In this document: in pieces, positions 38 to 35,925 of the stretch
Numbering within the stretch: position 1 is the first letter of the stretch
Layout of the letters: every line of letters starts with the position of its first letter
IMG/VR virus record: IMGVR_UViG_3300032242_002232
Span: 35,214-99,213 of that record
Length of the DNA stretch: 64,000 nucleotides
Strand: one strand, 5' to 3'
From: a virus
The notes under the pieces: generated by a model
What the model was told of the DNA's origin: nothing
Database searches by the model: none
The model's input: the letters and a program-made list of their open reading frames with translations, nothing else
Program-made: the position numbers and the translations under genes

Positions 38-1432
38 CTACTTACTTGTCTTTAGCCAAGCATCGACTTCTTCACCGATGTTTGATGCTTCAGGTTTCTG
101 TTCTTCTGTCTCAACGAGACCGAAGTCCTCCTTGATGTTGAACTCATGGGTCATCATGACAAGAGCAACTTTTTCTTGCTCTTCTTTATCAAAGTGTGCT
201 ACGAAATTAGCAATTGCAAACTCATAGTTGAACTTGATAAACTTTTCCAACTCCATGAACATGTTGGTTGATACTGGAGTCTCAAGGTCACCCTTGGAAG
301 CCTCAGCACGAAGCTGCTTCGCAATAACGAGAAGCGACTTGTGTGTGATGAGCTTAGACTCTACGTCATCATCGTAATCCCACGGGACCTGCAACTCAAA
401 GCGATTACGCATCGCAAAGTTGAGTGGCGTTGTACCGGTGTAATCAGGATTCATAGTTGCAAAGATTGCAAGGTCTGGGTGTGCCTGAATGGTCTCACCA
501 TGATGATCGAGCAGGATCAAGCAGCGTCGTCCATCAAGAAGTGAATACAGAATTGTGTAGATTTTTGGCGAGATAAAGTTGAGCTCGTCAAGAATAAGAG
601 TACCGCCGTTACGTACAACGTCAGTTACTGGACCGTCAATCCACTCGAACCCACCGCTTCCATCTGGTACATATTTACCGATGAGTTGGCTAGGTTCTAG
701 AGCAGCATTGCCAGATACAGCAGCTAGACGACGTTTACGTGAGGCAGACCATGCAACAATAGACGTAGTCTTACCAGGGCCGGTAGGGCCGTAGATAAGC
801 GTGGTCAATCCATTATCTAACGCGTAATCAAATAGGTCAAAGTCAAGAATGTCACCCGTAAGTTTACGGTTGACGTACTTGTTGGCTTGTTCGATTGGGG
901 GAATCGTAGCTAATGCAATCCGAAGTTTTGAGGTTGAGACAAGCTCTGTCTCTTCGACCTCAGGGGCTGCGGATGTTTGTGTTGGCATGAATTGCGCTTC
1001 TTCTTGTGAGTCTCGTTCACGACGTAGGTCGTTAACATACTCAGTCAATGAAGGATCCACTACATTCACTCTGTTGTATAGCGCAGTGATGCGGCTTGGT
1101 ACTGAACCAAACTCTTCATCTTTATCTGCTTTAGCATACGCTGCCATTGCTTTAGTAGACAACACAGGAGACCAACCGGTCTGTGATATTGCCTGCTCAT
1201 CAGCAAGAGTAACTGTTATGCCAACAGGTGTAGTAGTGATGTATTCATTGCTTGAGATACTCGCAAGCAACTCAGGTAATGATGTGATGTCCCAACGATT
1301 TGATTTGCCAGGACCACCATCAGTGAGTCTTGAATAGACCTTTGTCTCATCGTTATGAGGTACGAAAAGTATTTGACGCTTCTCGTCTCCCATCGATGGT
1401 TCATAAGTCTCTACGAACATCGCTATATTCAT
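38..1432 (-). CDS. MoxR/CbbQ/CobS-type AAA+ ATPase
   Basis: Walker A GPTGPGKT, Walker B LILDELN, 'WIDGPVTDVVRNG', 'FATMNPDY.GT..LN.A..NRF'. Confidence 0.9.
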   Translation of the reverse strand: MNIAMFVETYEPSMGDEKRQILFVPHNDETKVYSRLTDGGPGKSNRWDITSLPELLASISSNEYITTTPVGITVTLADEQAISQTGWSPVLSTKAMAAYAKADKDEEFGSVPSRITALYNRVNVVDPSLTEYVNDLRRERDSQEEAQFMPTQTSAAPEVEETELVSTSKLRIALATIPPIEQANKYVNRKLTGDILDFDLFDYALDNGLTTLIYGPTGPGKTTSIVAWSASRKRRLAAVSGNAALEPSQLIGKYVPDGSGGFEWIDGPVTDVVRNGGTLILDELNFISPKIYTILYSLLDGRRCLILLDHHGETIQAHPDLAIFATMNPDYTGTTPLNFAMRNRFELQVPWDYDDDVESKLITHKSLLVIAKQLRAEASKGDLETPVSTNMFMELEKFIKFNYEFAIANFVAHFDKEEQEKVALVMMTHEFNIKEDFGLVETEEQKPEASNIGEEVDAWLKTSK

Positions 1433-1452
1433 ATTGCCTTTCCCTTCTCACT

Positions 1453-1710
1453 GGAGAACCCCGATGGTTCTCTCAGCTAGTGTGCTATCAGGATTCGAAC
1501 CTGATTACTGCACCACGCTAGCACTGAGAAAAGAGTAAGGACCGGCGCCGATATCAGACACGCCGGTCCTTACACCTATTTACTGCTTACTCAATGAAGA
1601 GGATACTTAGTTGGCATAGAAGACCCGATACTCCACGCTATAGACTAAACCGCGATGACCGATATACAGACGTCAATCGTTGAATAGCTGCTATGACTGA
1701 TACTCTCTTC
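1453..1710 (-). ncRNA. Structured leader/ncRNA region including a T-loop-capped long hairpin
   Basis: Hairpins at 1453-1473, 1471-1529 (TCAGG-TTCGAAT-CCTGA apex on minus), a perfect 13-bp IR at 1535-1573, and an imperfect stem at 1596-1710. Confidence 0.55.
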
Positions 1711-1734
1711 CGACCCTGTTTTCCAATAAAGAGC

Positions 1735-2397
1735 CTAGCCCTCAATAGGTTCTTCCTGTGACATCTCACCAGTTACGATATTGAGCCGTAATGGTTTGGT
1801 GATGTCCCACTCCGATAGGATGAACTTACCACCCCATGGAACTTTACCTTTCCCACCACATCTATGACAGTCTGCCTGTTCACGATGCGGGACATTTCTT
1901 GTTTCTCCTTGTTTAGTACAGTTAAGATTGATATGGAATGTTTTATTACGACTGTCAGTGACTGGTCGCCACCCATCTTGTCCTGTACACAAGAACGTGT
2001 GTCTCTTTTGTCCACTGCAATTGCCACAGCGTCTCTCTTTCAAAGGAGTTTTAGCTGAAGCAGCGGTAGATATCAACAGCTTTTGTTTACGATAGATTAG
2101 ATCATTTAAGTTAGCGTAGTTAGCAACTGCCCTACGCCACGATGCTCTCATGAACATAGTTACCGGAGGAATGACAACCATTCCATTTGGTTCGTAGATA
2201 ACAAGCGGGTTATCTTTTGACCAATAAGGTGCAATAGATACCTGATCATTCTCTAGTCTAAATGCGTAAAGGCTACGCTCATACAATGGGCGCTTGCCTT
2301 CTGGATCTTTACCTTCTTCGATATGTTTAATGGCTGAGTCATAGTCATACACTCTCAGCCATTGATTATGGGGAAGAAGTTGAGCTTTGTCTACCAC
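1735..2397 (-). CDS. Hypothetical protein with DnaJ-like CxxCxG zinc-finger motifs
   Basis: CGNCSG and CHRCGGKG; GTG start with AGAAGGGA RBS. Confidence 0.65.
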   Translation of the reverse strand: MVDKAQLLPHNQWLRVYDYDSAIKHIEEGKDPEGKRPLYERSLYAFRLENDQVSIAPYWSKDNPLVIYEPNGMVVIPPVTMFMRASWRRAVANYANLNDLIYRKQKLLISTAASAKTPLKERRCGNCSGQKRHTFLCTGQDGWRPVTDSRNKTFHINLNCTKQGETRNVPHREQADCHRCGGKGKVPWGGKFILSEWDITKPLRLNIVTGEMSQEEPIEG

Positions 2398-2686
2398 GTA
2401 TATATTCCCTTCTCTCGTCTTCTGTTAAACCACCCCACATGCCGTGGGATTGGTTGGTTCTTATTGAGAAGTCAAAGCATTCCTTTGTTACAGAGCAGGC
2501 ATTGCAGATAGCTCTAGCTTTTGCTATTCTATCGGCTTTATCCCCACCCCTTTCTTGGTCTTCATAGAAGAACACGTCCGAATCAACTTCCCTACACAAC
2601 CCGCGTTGTTGCCAATCCCATTGGTTCGGTCTTGGGTCTAACGGCATTGTGTTAGAAGGATATGACTCATACTTTTTCCTAGACAT
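2366..2686 (-). CDS. whiB: WhiB-family Fe-S transcription factor
   Basis: WQQRGLC...FF...AICNACSVTKEC...HGMWGGLTEDER: four conserved Cys plus G(V/M)WGG motif. Confidence 0.95.
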   Translation of the reverse strand: MSRKKYESYPSNTMPLDPRPNQWDWQQRGLCREVDSDVFFYEDQERGGDKADRIAKARAICNACSVTKECFDFSIRTNQSHGMWGGLTEDERREYIRGRQSSTSSP

Positions 2687-2688
2687 AA

Positions 2689-3090
2689 TTACATCATGTC
2701 TAAGATTTGTTTAGTGATACTGATCTCTTCCTCAGTAGATAGACGAAGAGTAGTCAATAGCTTTTCTCTATGTCCATTGATATGTCCATAACCATATCCA
2801 TTTGTATATAGGTTATTAGACCAATCAGCGGAACGGCTTAGTTGTGGCATTGAAGGTAGGCTTACAGTCTTATCAAAAGTAATGCTTATTCCTTTACCAT
2901 AATTAAGTGTATCAATCTCACACTTGCCTTCTTTTAAAAGCTCAGCAATAGCATTAACATACTTTGTCTTTTCAGCTTCGTATGTATCTCTTGCTGTTTT
3001 AGCTTTTGCTTTAGCTTCAGCTATGCGTACAGCCTCTGCTTCTTGTTTAGTTTCAAGTTCTTTAATGAACTCTAGTCTATTCAGCTTCAT
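2689..3090 (-). CDS. Hypothetical protein with N-terminal coiled coil
   Basis: 133 aa ORF with AGAAGGGA RBS, abutting whiB. Confidence 0.75.
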   Translation of the reverse strand: MKLNRLEFIKELETKQEAEAVRIAEAKAKAKTARDTYEAEKTKYVNAIAELLKEGKCEIDTLNYGKGISITFDKTVSLPSMPQLSRSADWSNNLYTNGYGYGHINGHREKLLTTLRLSTEEEISITKQILDMM

Positions 3091-3114
3091 GCTTTTCCCT
3101 TCTGATATGAGTAA

Positions 3115-3180
3115 TGAGCCTTTTTACCTTAGGTCATGCTCAGGACCAAGTAGCAGTTTTAGTTATCATGCTCAGGATAA
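3115..3180 (-). ncRNA. Tandem small H-type pseudoknot motif (stem-CTGAGCAT-stem...A-rich linker...GCT)
   Basis: TTATC-CTGAGCAT-GATAA-CTAAAAC-TGCT and GGTC-CTGAGCAT-GACC-TAAGGTAAAAAG-GCTCA: identical loop, different but paired stems. Confidence 0.65.
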
Positions 3181-3243
3181 TTGGTGTAGCGGAAGCGGAG
3201 ATTTCGACACGCAGTGTCTCCCAATCCAAGTCGCGTACCAATA

Positions 3244-3411
3244 CTATGAAAGAGAGATAGGTTCGCTATCCTCTTTACGGTTAGCTCGAAGAGTATCGAG
3301 CTTTGCATTAAGTGCTTCAAGATCTTTTGTCATTGCATCAAGCTCACGCTCAATAGACTCAAGATATTTGTTGATGTTCTTCATGAACTCATTCAGTTCT
3401 TCAGGGGACAT
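3244..3411 (-). CDS. Small coiled-coil protein (55 aa, MSPEELNEF...)
   Basis: GAGGT RBS; heptad pattern. Confidence 0.7.
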   Translation of the reverse strand: MSPEELNEFMKNINKYLESIERELDAMTKDLEALNAKLDTLRANRKEDSEPISLS

Positions 3412-3413
3412 AA

Positions 3414-3518
3414 CTACCTCTTTCTCCTGTTGATGATTGATGTGAGCACGATAGTAATGCTTAGCATTACCATAATGCAAACGATTGAGTTCTCAGATAT
3501 ATCAAACGATACTGACAT
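3414..3518 (-). CDS. Small membrane protein (34 aa)
   Basis: MSVSFDISENSIVCIMVMLSITIVLTSIINRRKR; AGAAGGGA RBS; hydrophobic helix followed by basic tail. Confidence 0.55.
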   Translation of the reverse strand: MSVSFDISENSIVCIMVMLSITIVLTSIINRRKR

Positions 3519-3541
3519 ATTGATCCCTTCTATCTACCACG

Positions 3542-3953
3542 ATGGCAGATAAGTACACCAACCTGATATCCCGAATCTATTGTCCAGACACGAGTTTTTT
3601 ACGGACTCATTGTTTTGACTTCTACTTCGTTAGTAGAGACGCGTTTCGGCTACGCCTAACGCCTTCAATGCGTGTCCTCAAGCTGATCAATGCTAGATTA
3701 CAAGGTCTTTTTCCAACATAGAGTTATAGTCAGTTGTGCGCCTATGCCGGGGAAAACGGCGATGTTCAACCAGGTTGATGTACTTACCTGCCATAATAAT
3801 GAGGAGCAAGGCTATGGAAAAGGGAGGAACGTCACCAGCAGCTCCTCTAGCTTTTATTGCACATTCCTTCGAGTTCCGCTGGTCTACCAATATGTGGCTG
3901 GATATATCGGGGAATATAGAACCACCTAGCATCCTAGTCATAGCCTTGCTCCT
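3542..3953 (-). ncRNA. Large two-domain structured ncRNA of unknown family
   Basis: 24-bp closing stem 3542-3565/3771-3794 (both mismatches are G-U on minus), perfect 15-bp stem 3802-3816/3939-3953, many nested helices. Confidence 0.75.
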
Positions 3954-4081
3954 GCCCTACATTCTGTCTGACGGGACAGAACCCTATTTGTGCTCTCTCA
4001 TATGATTCATGAGAGTCATGTATGCAAATGAAGATCTAACCTCAATTTGTTTTTTACATACTTCACATATAACTATTTTGC

Positions 4082-4345
4082 TCAAGACAAGAGCCGTTTC
4101 TTGAAGTCTAATGACGCCTCTTCGATTGTCTCAAAATAGTGACCCCAATAACAGCGACCACTTTCATGATGATAAATCCATGTAACAAATGGGTGATAGG
4201 TGCTGGCAGGAGCATGACATAGGATTACATCACACTCGATATCAGCACTAACCTTGTTTGCAAGAATAGTGGCGCCTGTAGAGACACCACCATCTCCCTG
4301 TAATACTGTGCCTACCTGAATGGTAGATACTATAGGCCGGCTCAT
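4082..4345 (-). CDS. Hypothetical phage protein
   Basis: 'PFVTW...YWGHYF...A..DF..R' pattern; ATGA-coupled to the upstream gene. Confidence 0.75.
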   Translation of the reverse strand: MSRPIVSTIQVGTVLQGDGGVSTGATILANKVSADIECDVILCHAPASTYHPFVTWIYHHESGRCYWGHYFETIEEASLDFKKRLLS

Positions 4346-4971
4346 ATTGCCTCAATCTCTGCTTTAGCAGCATCAAGTGCTTCTTGCTGTAATGCTAGTT
4401 CAGCAAGCTTGGCTTCTTTGAGCTTTACCTTAGCTGTGCTTAGATAAGACACCAACTCTTCAGCCTCTTGTAGACTGATAGTAATTGTCTTACCTTTCGT
4501 AACTTCAATCTTGTTAGAGTGTGGGTTGATCTCATAACTGAGAGCACTGTCACAATAACAATATGATGAACGACATTTGCACATAGGTTTATCCTCCTCT
4601 TCCTTTTCTTGATTATAGAATTGGGGCTTCTTATCACCCTCTTCTATTAGCCTGATATTACTAAGCCACATAGTTCTACGAACTACGTTGGCACCTTCTT
4701 CATTAGAGCCATAAGACCAGTAGCGGTCGTACATACCAGATTTGTTTGTATATCGGCTGGGCATTTCCATCAGCACAGCGACATCACGATTTCTAGCACC
4801 TACGGCTACTACCTTCCATTTATGTGTTGCGTACCTATCACGATTAGAGGTGACAGTATCGCCGGGGAATATTTTTGATATACCCCAGTAGTAATACCGA
4901 TTCTCTTCTAACTCAGGATAGTCTTTACGAAACCGCTCTAATGTCATAGCATTTGGTAATACTCGACCCAT
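4342..4971 (-). CDS. Hypothetical protein
   Basis: 209 aa ORF, AAGGAG RBS, Cys cluster CKCRSSYCYC, C-terminal coiled coil. Confidence 0.75.
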   Translation of the reverse strand: MGRVLPNAMTLERFRKDYPELEENRYYYWGISKIFPGDTVTSNRDRYATHKWKVVAVGARNRDVAVLMEMPSRYTNKSGMYDRYWSYGSNEEGANVVRRTMWLSNIRLIEEGDKKPQFYNQEKEEEDKPMCKCRSSYCYCDSALSYEINPHSNKIEVTKGKTITISLQEAEELVSYLSTAKVKLKEAKLAELALQQEALDAAKAEIEAI

Positions 4972-4985
4972 TAGAGTCTCCTTTA

Positions 4986-5102
4986 CTAGTCGTTACACGT
5001 CTTATTGTGTAACCTATAAAACAGCGAGTCAACTACTGGAATTTTCCACCAAATTGACCACCATTTATTGTGGTTGTACATACTGCAGATGAGACTGCTC
5101 AT
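4986..5102 (-). CDS. Small Trp-rich hypothetical protein (38 aa)
   Basis: AAGGAGG RBS; MSSLICSMYNHNKWWSIWWKIPVVDSLFYRLHNKTCND. Confidence 0.55.
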   Translation of the reverse strand: MSSLICSMYNHNKWWSIWWKIPVVDSLFYRLHNKTCND

Positions 5103-5112
5103 GCACCCTCCT

Positions 5113-5256
5113 TTACTTGCAATTAGAGCAATAGTTCATAACTCTTACTTCAGACGGGGCAACAGAATAGACGCGGGAACAATGAGAGCAGGTAACCTGT
5201 GTCATTGGAGTCTTAGTCTTAGGTGTAAACCCCACCTTGATAGATATATGGAACAT
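5113..5256 (-). CDS. Small zinc-ribbon protein
   Basis: GGAGG RBS; CSHC...CSNC. Confidence 0.6.
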   Translation of the reverse strand: MFHISIKVGFTPKTKTPMTQVTCSHCSRVYSVAPSEVRVMNYCSNCK

Positions 5257-5432
5257 AATGCCTCCTTCCACTCCCATAAGGAGTGGGGGATACACAAGGA
5301 AGAATACCTACACACTCATCAAAGAGTCTCAGTAGTAAGTCTTATGTATCCTCCACCTCATACGGAACAGCAGCGCAGCCTTTCGCGGGGAAAATAGGGG
5401 CGAGAGGGCGAACTCATAGTTAAAATGGCAAT

Positions 5433-5479
5433 AAAAAAAGCCCCAGTCATATAGCAATTACACTATACAACTGGGGCTT
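5433..5479 (-). terminator. Rho-independent terminator
   Basis: AAGCCCCAGT...ACTGGGGCTT hairpin running into a T-tract on minus. Confidence 0.75.
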
Positions 5480-5503
5480 ACGTAAAAAAAGGGCGGGGGG
5501 AAA

Positions 5504-5659
5504 CTAATCTATGGGACTATCATCTATAGAGAGAGCATAAGACTCATCTGCTACACCAGCCTCATAGCCATCCCACCATGCTGTCCTGTATGTAAAGAAC
5601 CATACAAGGAAGCCTATAACTAGATCAATCAAGAGATTGAATCCATTGTAGAACATCAT
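5504..5659 (-). CDS. Small membrane protein
   Basis: GGAGG RBS; TM helix then 'WWDGYEAG'. Confidence 0.6.
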   Translation of the reverse strand: MMFYNGFNLLIDLVIGFLVWFFTYRTAWWDGYEAGVADESYALSIDDSPID

Positions 5660-5786
5660 ACCTAACCTCCTAACTAAGAGAAGGAGGCAAGGCATAGAGG
5701 CAGAGCACACTTAGTGATTTAAGCTAATAGCACCTCTACACCTGCCAACCATCTTTTCACCCTCTGAGATAGAGAGTCATAAGCCA

Positions 5787-5802
5787 TGTTTCACGTGGAA
5801 CA
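5787..5802. promoter_or_regulatory. parS-like ParB-binding palindrome
   Basis: TGTTTCACGTGGAACA, the reverse complement of canonical chromosomal parS TGTTCCACGTGAAACA; intergenic. Confidence 0.75.
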
Positions 5803-5829
5803 TAGCCTATGGCAAACTACCTGATAAGA

Positions 5830-5883
5830 GCAGTCCGCCCCCTCTCCAGAGCTGGTTATATAGATGGAGAGAGGGCAGACCGC
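5830..5883 (-). terminator. 19-bp RNA hairpin downstream of the 5912-6466 gene
   Basis: All three non-Watson-Crick positions are G-U on minus; no long U tract. Confidence 0.55.
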
Positions 5884-5911
5884 TTGAGCAGTGGCTTTTA
5901 TTTCCTGCCGA

Positions 5912-6466
5912 TTAGATAATGGCGCTAATCAACGCTTGGACTGCACGGAGTTGAGCCTTCTCAACATCCGAGATGTCCTGACCTAGAATTGCCTCAAGTG
6001 ATGACTTGAAAGCGGGTGTTGTCTCTCCAAGAGAAGCCTTAGAAGCCTTGAGAGCCTCTGACTGAGCCTTCTTAGCAAGAGCAACCTCAGCAGCGCGTGA
6101 GGCTAGAACCTCTGCTGCATCAGCCTTACCGAGTTGAGCCTTGATTTCCTCCCAATGAATTGAGGTGAAAGCGGCAACAACATCAGCGTCAATGCCCTGA
6201 GCAATAAGAGCACCGAGATAGACAGGTCGTTGGAAGCCATTGGTGAGGAACTTCTTATCAACAGACTCAGCGTCTGTCTTGTCCCCACGATTAGTCATGG
6301 CTTCAACTACCTGAACACGGACATCGCTCAGGATAGAGTCGGGTGTATCCCCACCCATAATGGCGTCCGCAACTGCACGGCGAACCTCAGGGGCAGAGAG
6401 ATTAGCATTACCAGCGTCAAAGACGCGGGTTGCTACTGATACACGGGTATCTGTCATTGTAGACAT
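5912..6466 (-). CDS. Hypothetical protein (first gene of the leftward arm)
   Basis: Start MSTMTDTRV after GAAGG RBS; Ala-rich helical C-terminus. Confidence 0.75.
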   Translation of the reverse strand: MSTMTDTRVSVATRVFDAGNANLSAPEVRRAVADAIMGGDTPDSILSDVRVQVVEAMTNRGDKTDAESVDKKFLTNGFQRPVYLGALIAQGIDADVVAAFTSIHWEEIKAQLGKADAAEVLASRAAEVALAKKAQSEALKASKASLGETTPAFKSSLEAILGQDISDVEKAQLRAVQALISAII

Positions 6467-6974
6467 AGTATTACCTTCTAGGAGTAGGGGTATCCATACA
6501 CGGTGTATGCGATAGAGCCTACGCCCGTGTGCTGTGTGGAATCGAACAGGTAAAGGGAATACCCCCCATAAGGGCACATGGCTAGTCACCAGACCAGCAC
6601 GAAGGCAGGATAGAACGCGAGCACACTTGGTAATTTATGGAATAAAAAAACCACAGCGATAACGATTGCCAGAAAATAGGCATAGTTATCCTGTGGAGTG
6701 TGCGGGCTACATCATCAACCGCGTTCACATATATTCTATTCTTGTTACCATCTTGTCTTTTATGCCCCCTATGGGTTAAATGTGACTTATGTAACTTATC
6801 GCCAGGTGAGACAGGCAACCATGACTATGATTTGTGGGGCAGTGGCCTAAAAATTTTCAAGGTCGGGGGAATTTCAGGCAGTGGCTAGGAATAAATTCGC
6901 TGGGGAAGGTGTTATTGTTAGCTGTCCTGCCCGATCGGGGGGATAAAACAACTTCTCGTCTAAGGAGAGAAAGA

Positions 6975-7406
6975 ATGCATACTCATGTCTACACACCAAC
7001 ACCTAATCTCAACTCTATTTATCCTGGGATCAATCGCTGGGCTATTGGATTTGATCCTCTATTTCAAACGCTGGGGCAAATTTCTCAAGCTAAAGATACG
7101 TATCCGCCATATAACGTCCGTAAAGACGGGGAAAACTACATCCTAGAGATGGCTGTGGCCGGTTTTGCCAAGGATGAGCTATCAGTTACAGTCAAGGAGC
7201 AGACTCTTACTGTCAAAGGCTCTAAGGAGGACTCAGAGGCTGAATACCTACATCAGGGAATCAGTGCTCGTGACTTCTATCGTGACTTTGCTTTGGCTGA
7301 ATACGTCTCTGTCAAGTCAGCAAAGATAGTTGACGGGCTGCTGACAATCGTTCTTCTTCAAGAGTTGCCAGAGGAGAAGAAGGAAAAGATCATCACTATC
7401 AAGTGA
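6975..7406 (+). CDS. hsp20: Small heat-shock protein (Hsp20/IbpA family)
   Basis: AAGGAG RBS; 'IGFD.LF', 'YPPYNV', 'LEMAVAGF', 'YLHQGISARDF', 'DGLL'. Confidence 0.95.
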   Translation: MHTHVYTPTPNLNSIYPGINRWAIGFDPLFQTLGQISQAKDTYPPYNVRKDGENYILEMAVAGFAKDELSVTVKEQTLTVKGSKEDSEAEYLHQGISARDFYRDFALAEYVSVKSAKIVDGLLTIVLLQELPEEKKEKIITIK

Positions 7407-24268: not shown

Positions 24269-26436
24269 TGGCTAACACACCTAATTTAATCGGAATGCCG
24301 GATGATGCAAGTAATGATCCTTCGGTCTATCTCCTTGGAATAAATAACTCTAACGGAGCTACTGGCCCAACAGGAACACAAGGTCCACAAGGACCAACAG
24401 GACCTACAGGTTCTAAAGGCGCAACCGGTGCTACCGGTGTAGGCGCAACCGGTGCAACTGGTCCATCTGGACCATCAGGTCCAACAGGTTCTACAGGTCC
24501 GCAAGGAAATGTAGGTCCAACAGGTAATACTGGTCCTACCGGTATTCAAGGAAATATTGGAGCAACAGGCCCTACAGGTGCCGCGTCAACAGTTCCAGGT
24601 CCTACAGGTTCACAAGGCTCTACTGGCCCAACAGGTCAACAAGGGCCGACAGGGCCGACAGGATCTAAGGGTGATACTGGTTCAATCGGTGCTACCGGTT
24701 CTACTGGCGCAACTGGTCCTATTGGGCCACTCGGAGCAACAGGTACTCAAGGTCCCACAGGACCAACTGGCTCTACAGGTGCAACAGGTTTGCAGGGTGT
24801 TACTGGACCCTCTGGCCCAACAGGCGGACAAGGAATTCAAGGATCAACTGGTCCTTCAGGAGCTACAGGTGTAGCTGGTCCACAAGGAAATACAGGACCT
24901 ACAGGTTCTAAAGGCGACACAGGTCCACAAGGCGTAACAGGTCCACAAGGTCCTTGGGGCGTAACTGGACCTACAGGTTCACAAGGTACCCAAGGTTTAC
25001 AGGGTAATACTGGTCCTACTGGTGCCACTGGTGGTCAAGGTCAAATTGGACCAACAGGTGTAACGGGACCAACAGGCGCTACTGGTGCTGCATCAACAGT
25101 GCCTGGCCCAACTGGTGCACAGGGACCAACAGGTCCACAAGGTATTTCAATCAAATACCAAGGAACACTTGGTAGCGTTGGAGCACTTCAATCTATTACA
25201 GGCCAAACTATAAATGATGCATACATCATTGGTAAAGATCTTTGGGTTTGGGAAGGCAACACTTGGGATAACGTAGGTGCAATTGTTGGTCCAACTGGTC
25301 CTATTGGTTTAACTGGTCCTACTGGAGCTACGGGCTCCACTGGTGCCGCATCTACCGTTGCTGGGCCAACAGGATCAACAGGACCTACTGGTTCTGTGGG
25401 ACCAACAGGTTCTACTGGTCCGCAAGGTACCCAAGGTATTCAAGGTGCAACCGGATCTACTGGCGCAACAGGATCTACTGGTCCTACTGGCGCCGCTAGC
25501 ACAATCCCAGGACCAACGGGATCAACTGGCGCTACCGGTGCCGGACTTAACGTACTCGGCACATACTCAACTCTTTCAGCGCTTCAAGCTGCGCGCCCAA
25601 CAGGCACTGCTGGTGATGCATATATTGTTGCAGGCAGTTTATATGTTTGGAATGGTTCTGCATGGACACTTGGTGGAAACATTCAAGGACCAACAGGCGG
25701 TACCGGTGCAACGGGAGCAACAGGATCAACAGGTGCAACAGGTTCTACTGGATCAACTGGCTCTAAAGGTGATACTGGTCCAGGTAAATTTACATTTGCA
25801 ACAACCCCACCATCTAACCCTGTACTCGGAGATCATTGGATTGAAGATGCAACGGGAATTGAATATACATGGAGCACAGATGGCGTAAGTACTTTTTGGG
25901 TAGAGCTTGTTCCTACAGGTTATTTAGGACCTACTGGCCCACAAGGTCCTACCGGAGCAGCCTCTACAATACCTGGCCCTACAGGTCCGACAGGTAATAC
26001 CGGTGCTACAGGAGCAACAGGCGCCAGCGTTACTGGCCCACAAGGACCTACAGGTTCTACTGGCGCAACAGGGGCAACCGGCTCAACGGGGTCTATCGGC
26101 GCTACAGGTCCAGGATCTACATACACAATTTCTTATCCTTCCGGGTCTTATATTGTTACAACTGACGACACAGCCACCTCGTTCTATATGGCCTCAAATA
26201 CTTCGGTAAACTTTCAGTTGCCGGCTAATATATCTTCACCTATACCTATTGGGTCAACAGTAACAGTTACTCAGTATGGTCTAGGTCAGGTGACTATCTC
26301 CGCCTATTTAGGTACAGCATCTATTGTCTCTAATGCATCTACAGCAAATTCTCCTAAGCTTAGGGCGCAATTTTCTTCAGCAACATGCGTAAAAATTGGA
26401 TTAGATTCGTGGCATGTAATTGGAGACATAATTTAA
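24268..26436 (+). CDS. Collagen triple-helix fibre protein
   Basis: Long (G-X-Y)n tracts, mainly GPT/GAT/GST, interrupted by short globular knots. Confidence 0.9.
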
Positions 26437-27320
26437 TGAGGAGCGCGCTGTACATAGCTTCTCAATCCTCACGCCACACAGGGGTTGTCTATAGACCAGT
26501 TAATATGATCCCTACTCCCGTGAGTAACTTTCAAGTTAGGGTTGTATTAACACCTTCCAACTTTAACTACTCCAAAGCAAGGAGTGATGGAAGAGACATT
26601 AGGTTTTACGAAAATACCAACTTCTCATCACCATTACCTATGTGGTTAGAGTCTTGGAACTATAATGGAAATTCTGCAATATGGGTAAAGGTCGCGTCAC
26701 AAAGTAAATCCCTTATGTACATGACCTATGGCAGCTCTTCTTTAACCTCCATATCTAATATTGATACCGTTATGGAAAATGGTATGCAGTTTGGTTACTT
26801 TGCAAGTACCGTACAGGGAGCCGGAGTTGGGGCTTTTAATAGCCTTCAATTTTCTGGTATAGACCCTGTTATGAGCACTGATTGGGGTTCCGGCACAGTA
26901 TCTATTAACGGGTTGGGAAGCCTAGCTGACTATGTCTCAATAAGATGGCGTGGATGGGTGAAGCCTTATGAGTCCGGAAACCATACATTTTATTTCACAA
27001 CAGATGATGGAAGCCGAATGTACATAGGCCCAGATTCCTCATATAATTCAAACCCAGCTTGGACAATAAATAGCTGGATTGATCAAGGTCCAACAGAATA
27101 TTCAGGAACCGTGTCTATAACCGACGGTGTTCCGAGGTATATGCAAAAAGAGTGGTTTGAAACTGGTGGTGGTGCAACGGCCTTGACTGGATGGGCAACC
27201 CCTAGCGTACTTAAAGTATACCCAATTACATCTGGTTACTTAAAGGCACCAAAATATGACTCTTCTTATTCAGATTCTTTTGGTTATTCCGCAACCGTTG
27301 GTTCAGAAATTACTATCTAA
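26436..27320 (+). CDS. DUF2341 + PA14 carbohydrate-binding virion protein
   Basis: F.YSKA..DGRDIRF...L..W.E.W......IWVK; SIRWRG.....G.HTF..TTDDG.R. Confidence 0.8.
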   Translation: MRSALYIASQSSRHTGVVYRPVNMIPTPVSNFQVRVVLTPSNFNYSKARSDGRDIRFYENTNFSSPLPMWLESWNYNGNSAIWVKVASQSKSLMYMTYGSSSLTSISNIDTVMENGMQFGYFASTVQGAGVGAFNSLQFSGIDPVMSTDWGSGTVSINGLGSLADYVSIRWRGWVKPYESGNHTFYFTTDDGSRMYIGPDSSYNSNPAWTINSWIDQGPTEYSGTVSITDGVPRYMQKEWFETGGGATALTGWATPSVLKVYPITSGYLKAPKYDSSYSDSFGYSATVGSEITI

Positions 27321-35100: not shown

Positions 35101-35925
35101 TGGGGATCATCTTCAGCATCACTTACATACCCAGGCCGTGGAAACGGTGGCGGTGGTAAGGGCGGCGGAACATATATCGCTGACGAATACAACAACCAGT
35201 ACTACTTTGCTCGTGGCCTTGATGCTACACCTAACACCGGTGGTGGCGGAGGTGGTGGCGGTTCTCTACAGAACAACTCACCATTTGCACTTATCACACA
35301 TACAGCCGCAGCAAATACTATTAACTTCGAAAACTGGAATCAGGATAACTACAAGATGGTGGGATTGTATAACGCAACCCCTATCCAGTCTTCTGGTGCA
35401 GCCATTGCTGCTGGTACCTATGGTATGCAGGTAACGATTGGTGACAATGGTTCAGCTAAGGTTGTAACTGCTTGGCAGGAATTCCCAATCCTTCCTCGTA
35501 CAGTTCTCTACTTCCCAGTTGTAGCGTTCCAACTAGCAACAGCACCTCAGGGTGTTACAAACGCTACTCTCTTCCCAGGATTGTCAAAGCGTGTTCGCCC
35601 AACAGTTCGTTGGAAGGATGCAACTAACACAATCATCCGTGAAGATCGCCCAGCATATGATGCAATCTTTACAGCACTATCAACAACTACCTACCTTGGA
35701 CCTACAGCAGGTTACGCACAGTCTGGTGGTTGGGCAACATTAGCGGCTCCTGCAAACGCTTACTTCTTCGACCTAACATATGAATTCGATTACTTTGATG
35801 GTGGTGACGTTGTTTACGTAGACAACGCGGCAGCTGCTGTCCAGTACCTTGGATACATTGGTCAAGGCGGTAACGGTGCTGACGGTTATGCTATCGTTCG
35901 TTACTTCGACAAGACTTCACTCTAA
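32179..35925 (+). CDS. Glycine-rich tail fibre/receptor-binding protein
   Basis: FTASGTWTAPSGVT....LVGAGGGGG; GGGGG blocks; ends GGNGADGYAIVRY; CBM-like inserts. Confidence 0.8.
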   Translation: MAISAYKDVIVFPNDNSGRVNIKEQAFTASGTWTAPSGVTAAQIILVGAGGGGGGGSTNVAGGGGGGGQVTVINYPVTPGTAYQVNIGAGGLGGQSSITSATDVLSTLPGANGGTTSFGSTTVWNYLTNPDFDYNTLGWDPEVTFRFVTGVSGASTVQVFPNAAGLINGMYVLGTNLGSNTQITAISGNILTLSVINAGAVNTVVRFDGGNSQLAPANTTVNAISAPGVDAITGVNTFAVNSAGSPYTNTMTGTTQPQILSNNLMPARLAQLEDPQLVSGTYISSQGTNAATISITAAGLPAKINNEMIGAVTTTASATNGATTITVTNAFGIYANMFITAPSGIATGTYVLAVNGTSITLSTGTTGVLSGSTVYFSYNPSLGLNALLATTGAAVSTANPSWLLFSTLTNTSTTGSSSYVGGYQGIPWIPGQTYTVSAYVSSNLNISTSTPILFQLRSAGWSYMAAVNVNYLGGTGTYTPNTNTIDAGTTNGFFVRQSTAAAMTGYGASITSTATGSSGSTQFVVTNAAGVYVGMQITAVGVTVGTTVTSITGSTGSQTVTMSAVSTAALTNTSVTFSMPSGVQVLGSTVTTGQTGWRRIYATITTPSISATSATATNNIYGLGSTPQFIYPAIVLQQANTSFWFDNLQVELGSVPTTWQPPVYQQIPSLSVQSNANNSTDLESAHRPVRITANSTYSGSMYVTALGTTPYYQPVTAFIEWMDVDYNVLSRSTGSNNFLPLLPQQTATVQAPNTTYPVRIGVSATAPATAVFARLGFSVYQGTKGATTAIQYNMFYPVLELGSNVFTQPKRPDGINYFWAGQPGASALISSWALAAEGGGGGGTYNSANTHWQYGLEGGNNGGHAANNSYSTLTLAGGGGGSFSVGMPGQAWGQTTNASTSSQVGTNTGSTAGIYSHTFPVRGNLGGFSHIDNGGNASYLSAQGGDGGLGQLISGLTSGSPLGLTLGGGGGGAGWGSSSASLTYPGRGNGGGGKGGGTYIADEYNNQYYFARGLDATPNTGGGGGGGGSLQNNSPFALITHTAAANTINFENWNQDNYKMVGLYNATPIQSSGAAIAAGTYGMQVTIGDNGSAKVVTAWQEFPILPRTVLYFPVVAFQLATAPQGVTNATLFPGLSKRVRPTVRWKDATNTIIREDRPAYDAIFTALSTTTYLGPTAGYAQSGGWATLAAPANAYFFDLTYEFDYFDGGDVVYVDNAAAAVQYLGYIGQGGNGADGYAIVRYFDKTSL

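Follow-up and report, generated by a model that had tools for sequence, protein, structure and literature searches.

RNase III requires approximately two helical turns of double-stranded RNA, and its helices are known from the 16S and 23S rRNA stalks, the excised 23S intervening sequences, and the intergenic signals of phage T7 early mRNA. They are duplexes of two or more helical turns whose arms flank a segment of a polycistronic transcript; compensatory change maintains the pairing as the sequence drifts, and cleavage leaves hairpins at the ends. The T7 sites are local hairpins of ~50–60 nt that occur at many junctions, and the rRNA stalks enclose functional RNA. The phi29 pRNA, 6S/Ms1 RNA, and adenovirus VA RNA are viral or bacterial RNAs with paired ends, in which a long helix joins the termini and the structure is maintained with little sequence conservation. 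RNase III sites have been surveyed in E. coli (PMC5371410). Correia elements of Neisseria are short, non-coding elements with ~26-bp terminal inverted repeats that are co-transcribed with their neighbours; the RNA hairpin of a Correia element is bound or cut by RNase III, the expression of adjacent genes is altered, and the presence of the elements varies between relatives (PMC2649163).

We analysed a stem-closed element at positions 3542–3794 of a 64,000-nt stretch of viral DNA (the window), which corresponds to positions 35214–99213 of a 99,213-bp IMG/VR virus record rated 100% complete. The element resembles the RNase III helices in its duplex of more than two helical turns, in the placement of its arms around a segment of a putative polycistronic transcript, and in the retention of pairing during sequence drift, and it is a candidate for such a helix, cleavage being proposed. 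Unlike the T7 sites, elements of this kind number one or two per genome and enclose ~200 nt of non-coding sequence, and they differ in this content from the rRNA stalks. The element shares with Correia elements its short non-coding form, its long terminal inverted repeats, and, in one family of its relatives (family A, described below), presence or absence among related genomes. However, a Correia element is present in hundreds of nearly identical copies, which have TA target duplications and IHF/promoter motifs, whereas the window element is found once, no duplication is visible at its edges, and its relatives are alike in structure and not in sequence. The paired ends and the conservation of structure over sequence are also features of phi29 pRNA, 6S/Ms1, and VA RNA, but the element has no Rfam match and no supported rod-with-bubble or loop-loop features, and the interior of the window copy folds at chance level. 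The element probably serves in RNA processing or regulation; devices of this general kind are known, and its form is new.

The ORF map places the element in a ~500-nt non-coding gap within a leftward (minus-strand) block of small genes. The order of transcription in this block is the 209-aa gene, the 87-aa gene (4082–4345), a 33-aa mini-gene (3984–4085), the gap, a 34-aa mini-gene (3414–3518), the 78-aa gene, the 133-aa gene, and the gene of a WhiB-family regulator (2366–2686; Pfam, 77.6 bits), so that all genes flanking the element are on the minus strand and co-oriented on both sides of the gap. The 33-aa mini-gene, of the Cys2-His2 type, forms the upstream boundary of the gap and shows 72–75% identity in the related loci L002, L005, L007, and L020; its peptide has the pattern Cys-x2-Cys…His-x3-His. 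The 34-aa mini-ORF downstream of the element encodes a hydrophobic, single-pass peptide, and a look-alike mini-ORF is present at 3892–3996 of L002. The small-gene block is a ~10-kb segment oriented opposite to the rest of the genome, and the element is located ~2 kb inside it. A WhiB gene points to an actinobacterial host, and the phage is actinophage-like and WhiB-encoding. The DNA runs that carry the stretch are from freshwater or lake metagenomes only. The 87-aa protein belongs to no Pfam family, matched only viral hypothetical proteins in the Atlas, and had no counterpart in cultured phages by tblastn; its structure model is confident (pLDDT 84), and no fold match was obtained at E ≤0.001. 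A scan for promoters and terminators around the element gave signals at the level of shuffled sequence. The sole strong terminator-like site in the small-gene block is a 19-bp G+C-rich hairpin followed by a T run at 5438–5479 (minus strand).

The closing stem claimed in the original prediction was found, beyond the level of shuffled sequence, as an inverted repeat of 24-nt arms (3542–3565 and 3771–3794) with 2 mismatches (92% complementary) and 205 nt between the arms. The imperfections read A-C and C-A on the plus strand and therefore are both G-U on the minus (gene) strand, as had been predicted. In RNAfold, the helix grew to 26 bp on the minus strand, where its 5′ arm (3769–3794; 24-nt core, 3771–3794) starts with the purine-rich AUGGCAGGUAAG and its 3′ arm (3542–3567; 24-nt core, 3542–3565) ends with the pyrimidine-rich CUUAUCUGCCAU. 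The arm occurred in two copies in 0 shuffles of the window. In a repeat scan of the whole genome, the element scored 17 and the neighbouring structure at 3802–3953 scored 15, while shuffled genomes gave at most 12.5, and no other short-range inverted repeat in the 99-kb genome was as strong. The closing helix is real and far beyond chance. With 24–26 bp and only G-U imperfections on the minus strand, it reaches the double-stranded length of an RNase III helix (~20–22 bp or more). Gene-enclosing long-range stems were also sought in this genome, and none exceeded the shuffle level. A perfect 17-bp inverted repeat with arms 636 nt apart is present ~9 kb to the left of the window (genome positions 25827–25843 and 26480–26496), and its counterpart in the relative G001 (74331–75006) has arms 642 nt apart.

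The interior enclosed by the helix (3568–3768, minus strand; 201 nt) is non-coding. Folded alone, it had a minimum free energy of −47.1 kcal/mol, while shuffles averaged −46.1 (z = −0.22), and 77 of the 200 shuffled sequences folded as well. The z value of the whole element was −6.35 on the minus strand and −5.46 on the plus strand; since the interior folds at the shuffle level, the former value is due to the closing stem. A highly nested multibranch fold, as had been proposed for the interior, is not supported: the small inner helices of 3–6 bp are present in the sequence, but their folding stability is at the chance level. The interiors of the related elements L002a and L002b likewise fold at chance level.

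We compared near relatives of the locus in contigs from four freshwater DNA runs. The flanking DNA in the closest run was 95–99% alike, and, among the differences listed, none affected the left arm or the 9 outermost nt of the right arm. In near relatives, unalignable sequence of near-equal length took the place of the middle of the element (~3660–3755; 93 nt for 94 nt, and 87 nt for 89 nt). On these alignments the interior is fast-evolving, with its length roughly kept.

No described RNA family accounts for the element, as the original prediction had supposed. A search of the element region against Rfam 15 at a permissive E-value gave no family at the gathering threshold; the best match, DABA-DC-AT, scored 21.3 bits against a threshold of 56.1 and spanned only the 3′ arm and the local hairpin described below. 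The same search on nine related loci returned tRNA only, and 6S, Y RNA, and pRNA had no match in the element or in the related loci. By blastn, no similar DNA was present in a phage collection of 50,697 records, and the exact arm pattern was not found in IMG/VR. The handle pattern GGCAGGTARG…CYTATCTGYC identified 14 new stretches in IMG/VR, which are regarded as chance matches because all of them lack further complementarity.

A second stem-closed domain (3802–3953, minus strand) is adjacent to the element and consists of a perfect 15-bp closing helix around a 39-nt block (3839–3877). The block, which is therefore outside the 24-bp-closed element, is 95–100% identical in the window, L002, L005, and L007, phages whose proteins are 55–75% identical. 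The DNA around the block is non-coding and unalignable among those four phages. The block is absent from G002 and G003, it is covered by no ORF in L002, and the L002 contig was its sole match in IMG/VR. The block is a strongly constrained RNA or DNA signal. In L002, the domain of the 39-nt block appears by eye to be closed by a ~13-bp helix (3594–3607 with ~3741–3753) that is unlike the 15-bp helix of the window in sequence, which would be a compensatory replacement of a whole stem.

The 87-aa protein was used as a query, and 40 loci were collected. In blastn comparisons of the window with related loci, similarity in the gap was limited to one block of 38–39 nt, with none within the element. 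Three families of large stem-closed elements were nevertheless present in the related loci. Family A (L002, L005, L007, and L020) directly follows the 33-aa finger gene and has a 34-bp stem and an interior of ~180 nt; its 5′ arm begins at the stop codon of the upstream gene. Family B (L002, L005, L020, and L022) is upstream of the 87-aa gene, with a stem of 25–29 bp and an interior of ~235 nt. Family C (L003, L008, L025, and L026) follows another small gene and has a stem of 25–28 bp and an interior of 180–227 nt. The large closing stems in the relatives are all at least 24 bp (24–34 bp) and their interiors of ~180–240 nt are ORF-free; shorter stem-closed elements are also present in the related loci. 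In four ~100-kb genomes scanned whole, strong short-range repeats (arms of 24–29 bp) occurred only within ~1 kb of the 87-aa gene, at one or two per genome. The ~100-kb relatives searched whole, three besides the phage of the window, each had one or two comparable elements at this place. The elements of the four scanned genomes are in an oppositely oriented block of ~10–15 kb, in the part nearest the turn of gene direction.

The element sequences are unrelated between families, and no convincing interior or loop motif is common to them; families A and C show a similar order of helices despite their unlikeness in sequence. A covariance model of family A matched L002, L005, L007, and L020 only and found nothing in the window (E up to 10) or in families B and C. 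The window resembles family A in the base of the stem (CAGGUA/UAUCUG, including the G-U) and in the 3′ flank, and it shares with the relatives a long closing stem, a non-coding interior of 180–240 nt, an alternative 3′ hairpin, and a nearby 87-aa gene. The resemblance is one of kind, and homology of the window element to the elements of the relatives, judged from sequence, is unproven. By its architecture, the window element is one of an uncatalogued group of stem-closed elements that are carried by a clade of freshwater phages with genomes of ~100 kb. In L008 (3464–3710) and L003 (2064–2300), the family-C element is followed by a further ORF-free stretch of ~230 nt with conserved patches, and the G/C-rich hairpin at its end overlaps the point where the next ORF is predicted to start. 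Of the minus-strand copies of the hexamer UUCCCC, 10 are in the first 7.1 kb of the window (898–7128) and 8 in the remaining 57 kb; the sites include predicted loops of both stem-closed domains of the window (3749 and 3909), and in families B and C the hexamer follows the upstream stop codon and precedes the 5′ arm.

In all three families, pairing is preserved by double changes. Family A had 16 such pairs versus 6.1±1.9 in column-shuffled alignments and at most 3 with slid partners, and family B had 23 pairs versus 7.9±2.1 and at most 5, respectively. The compensatory changes were in the closing stems and in interior helices. These counts are supportive and not conclusive, because the structures were derived from the same 3–4 sequences. 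In a cleaner test, which compared the strands, the consensus folds of the three families were much more stable on the gene strand than on the complement (−76.8 vs −54.3, −82.7 vs −60.6, and −67.6 vs −51.6 kcal/mol), and on the opposite strand 27–54 G-U cells of the same pairs become mismatches. This comparison of strands favours a folded transcript in the orientation of the genes or, less plausibly, single-stranded DNA of that strand. The raw tally of wobbles in the closing stems alone was only ~22 G-U vs 13 A-C. The wobbles of the window element had originally been read as a sign of RNA and of its orientation. That argument is weak alone, because a transition in either arm of a DNA repeat always produces G-U on one of the strands, and the chance that two wobbles share a strand is 1 in 2; it is the compensatory changes and the folding of the relatives that favour the gene-strand orientation.

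In an alternative local hairpin (3530–3552, minus strand; −11.0 kcal/mol), the final 10 nt of the 3′ arm can pair with the 10 nt after the element around the loop UCG, in competition with the base of the long stem. The Shine-Dalgarno-like AGAAGGGA (3524–3531, minus strand) is 5 nt upstream of the AUG of the 34-aa gene and overlaps the 3′ end of this hairpin by 2 nt. The hairpin had p = 0.048 against shuffled downstream sequence. In the window and the relatives, the 3′ arms have a pyrimidine-rich end and the 5′ arms a purine-rich start, and most elements allow local pairing of the 3′-arm end with the sequence just downstream, at a place that adjoins or covers a purine-rich ribosome-binding site. 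Local pairing of the 3′-arm end in the relatives gave p values of 0.01 (L002a), 0.05 (L002b), 0.066 (L003c), and 0.002 (L020s); in L002b the 3′-arm end pairs with the Shine-Dalgarno sequence of the next ORF, and in L020s with a Shine-Dalgarno-like sequence. Over ten elements, the shuffle p ranged from 0.002 to 0.6, and a hand Fisher combination gave ~4e-5, in which the members of a family are not fully independent.

Taken from sequence and predicted structure, the element is probably an RNA processing or regulatory element. The reading that we prefer, at a probability of approximately 0.4, is that of an RNA domain on the sense strand, the long duplex of which would be cut by host RNase III. 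The element would be one non-coding domain in the polycistronic RNA transcribed leftward (minus strand) from the small-gene block, and its duplex, once transcribed, would have the substrate length for the host enzyme. The cut would separate the upstream message of the finger gene from the downstream message of the 34-aa gene and would release the ~200-nt interior. The 3′-arm stub on the downstream RNA would then refold with the next 10 nt into a 5′-terminal hairpin against the ribosome-binding site, and this hairpin may make the downstream message more stable or adjust its translation. For the most part, the interior would be a length-constrained spacer or a disposable by-product. As part of this reading, we propose that the feature under selection is the 24–26-bp end-to-end duplex rather than the interior.

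Actinobacteria possess RNase III. RNase III and dsRBD genes are absent from the phage genome, in a search that detected the Corynebacterium positive control, and the genome also has no TROVE (Ro60) or RtcB, no RVT_1 match, and no serine or tyrosine recombinase. The readings as a retron, a DGR, a Y RNA, or a segment inverted by the phage itself are removed by these absences, and host RNase III is left as the obvious reader of a 24–34-bp duplex. The ribozyme, RNAP decoy, and RNP scaffold roles suggested in the original prediction find no pointer in the element, nor in a phage without Ro60, RtcB, reverse transcriptase, RNase III, or dsRBD genes. Several observations argue against the RNase III reading. 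Punctuation by RNase III would be expected at many gene junctions, but only one or two stems are present per genome. Furthermore, the length of the interior is roughly kept (~180, 205, or 235 nt) and the interiors of the relatives covary, which is a hint that the interior matters more than a spacer would. The unproven homology of the window copy to the elements of the relatives and the modest excess of G-U in the raw wobble tally of the closing stems also count against this reading.

The small number of stems per genome, the kept interior length, and the covarying interiors keep alive a reading as a stand-alone, stable non-coding RNA, to which we assign an outside chance. The terminal duplex would be a protective or recognition handle and the interior would be functional, as a long-duplex decoy, a partner of the 87-aa protein, or an RNAP-binding RNA. 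The syntenic place of the one or two copies near the 87-aa gene, the covariation within the interiors of families A and B, and the likeness of families A and C in helix order and not in sequence are in line with such an RNA, as is the maintenance of interior length where the sequence has been replaced. Against this, the interiors of the window copy, L002a, and L002b are at chance-level folding, no loop motif crosses the families, and Rfam, including 6S, Y RNA, and pRNA, gave no match. A protein partner is also not apparent, as there is no Ro60, RtcB, or dsRBD gene and the 87-aa protein is without an informative fold match. It is conceivable, though doubtful, that the elements form an uncatalogued class of single-copy, fast-evolving phage non-coding RNAs. 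Such RNAs would be excised from an early transcript by means of their own long closing duplex and would function in trans, for instance by using this duplex to decoy a dsRNA-binding enzyme or a defence of the host, or by serving as RNA partner to the 87-aa protein, which is always adjacent.

An element that acts as DNA, either a MITE-like palindromic insertion, a single-stranded hairpin signal (origin or priming), or an invertible segment, is improbable. Its 24-bp terminal inverted repeats around ~200 bp have the form of such an insertion, and G-T pairs are tolerated in folded single-stranded DNA too. There is also one site per genome near the turn of gene direction. GC skew gave no origin signal at the element. 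The modules differ in order, with the domain of the 39-nt block first and the large element second in the window and the reverse in L002. In alignment, the small hairpin directly after the stop codon of the 33-aa finger gene (3962–3981, minus strand) is an empty site where L002, L005, and L007 carry a ~225-nt family-A element with sharp edges; such elements therefore come and go at hairpins. The window's own element was present in all 4 near relatives compared. However, no copies of the MITE or Correia type beyond the one were found across the genome (where the arm occurs nowhere else), the phage collection, and IMG/VR. No target-site duplication is present at the edges, since the plus-strand flanks, ccacg before ATGGCAG and aataat after CTGCCAT, contain no direct repeat. 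The complete genome lacks a transposase-type recombinase, as it lacks the recombinases and the reverse transcriptase noted above, and no strand-changing joints were seen in the four metagenome runs, which were covered as contigs that would drop rare forms. Moreover, the arms differ between families and their pairing is kept, unlike the arms of a recombinase site.

An uncleaved RNA switch or insulator appears at least as improbable. The 3′ arm would be held either by the 5′ arm or by the sequence adjacent to the ribosome-binding site, and upstream ribosomes or folding kinetics would set the translation of the 34-aa gene. The alternative hairpin in the window and the relatives is in line with such a switch, as are its partner in L002b and L020s, which is the Shine-Dalgarno itself, and the start of the family-A 5′ arm at the upstream stop codon. 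However, the 26-bp helix (~−40 kcal/mol of the total) would outcompete the 10-bp hairpin unless it is actively opened, the window hairpin abuts the Shine-Dalgarno and covers only its first 2 nt, and a switch does not need a 200-nt loop.

Protein coding by the overlapping 59-aa ORF (plus strand) or the tail of the 82-aa ORF (minus strand), both of which start with the arm ATGGCAG, is very improbable even though both arms read inward M-A-(D/G)-K-Y-(T/I)-N-L, since neither ORF has a Pfam match, the 82-aa ORF is not kept in L002 (where the equivalent region has no ORF at all), near relatives have net indels at 3589–3625 that are not multiples of three as well as the unalignable middle, and the plus-strand ATG has no ribosome-binding site; the non-coding status in the original prediction therefore stands.

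In regards to its present value, the element is a well-delimited candidate with related elements that show covariation. A functional excised piece would make it the first of a new class of phage RNA. If, instead, the duplex is processed, the element would be a clean and testable case of the use of host RNase III by phages of freshwater actinobacteria, which are almost unstudied at the RNA level, and would provide a search rule that is free of sequence: a stem of at least 24 bp, a loop of ~200 nt, and a back-up hairpin at the next ribosome-binding site.
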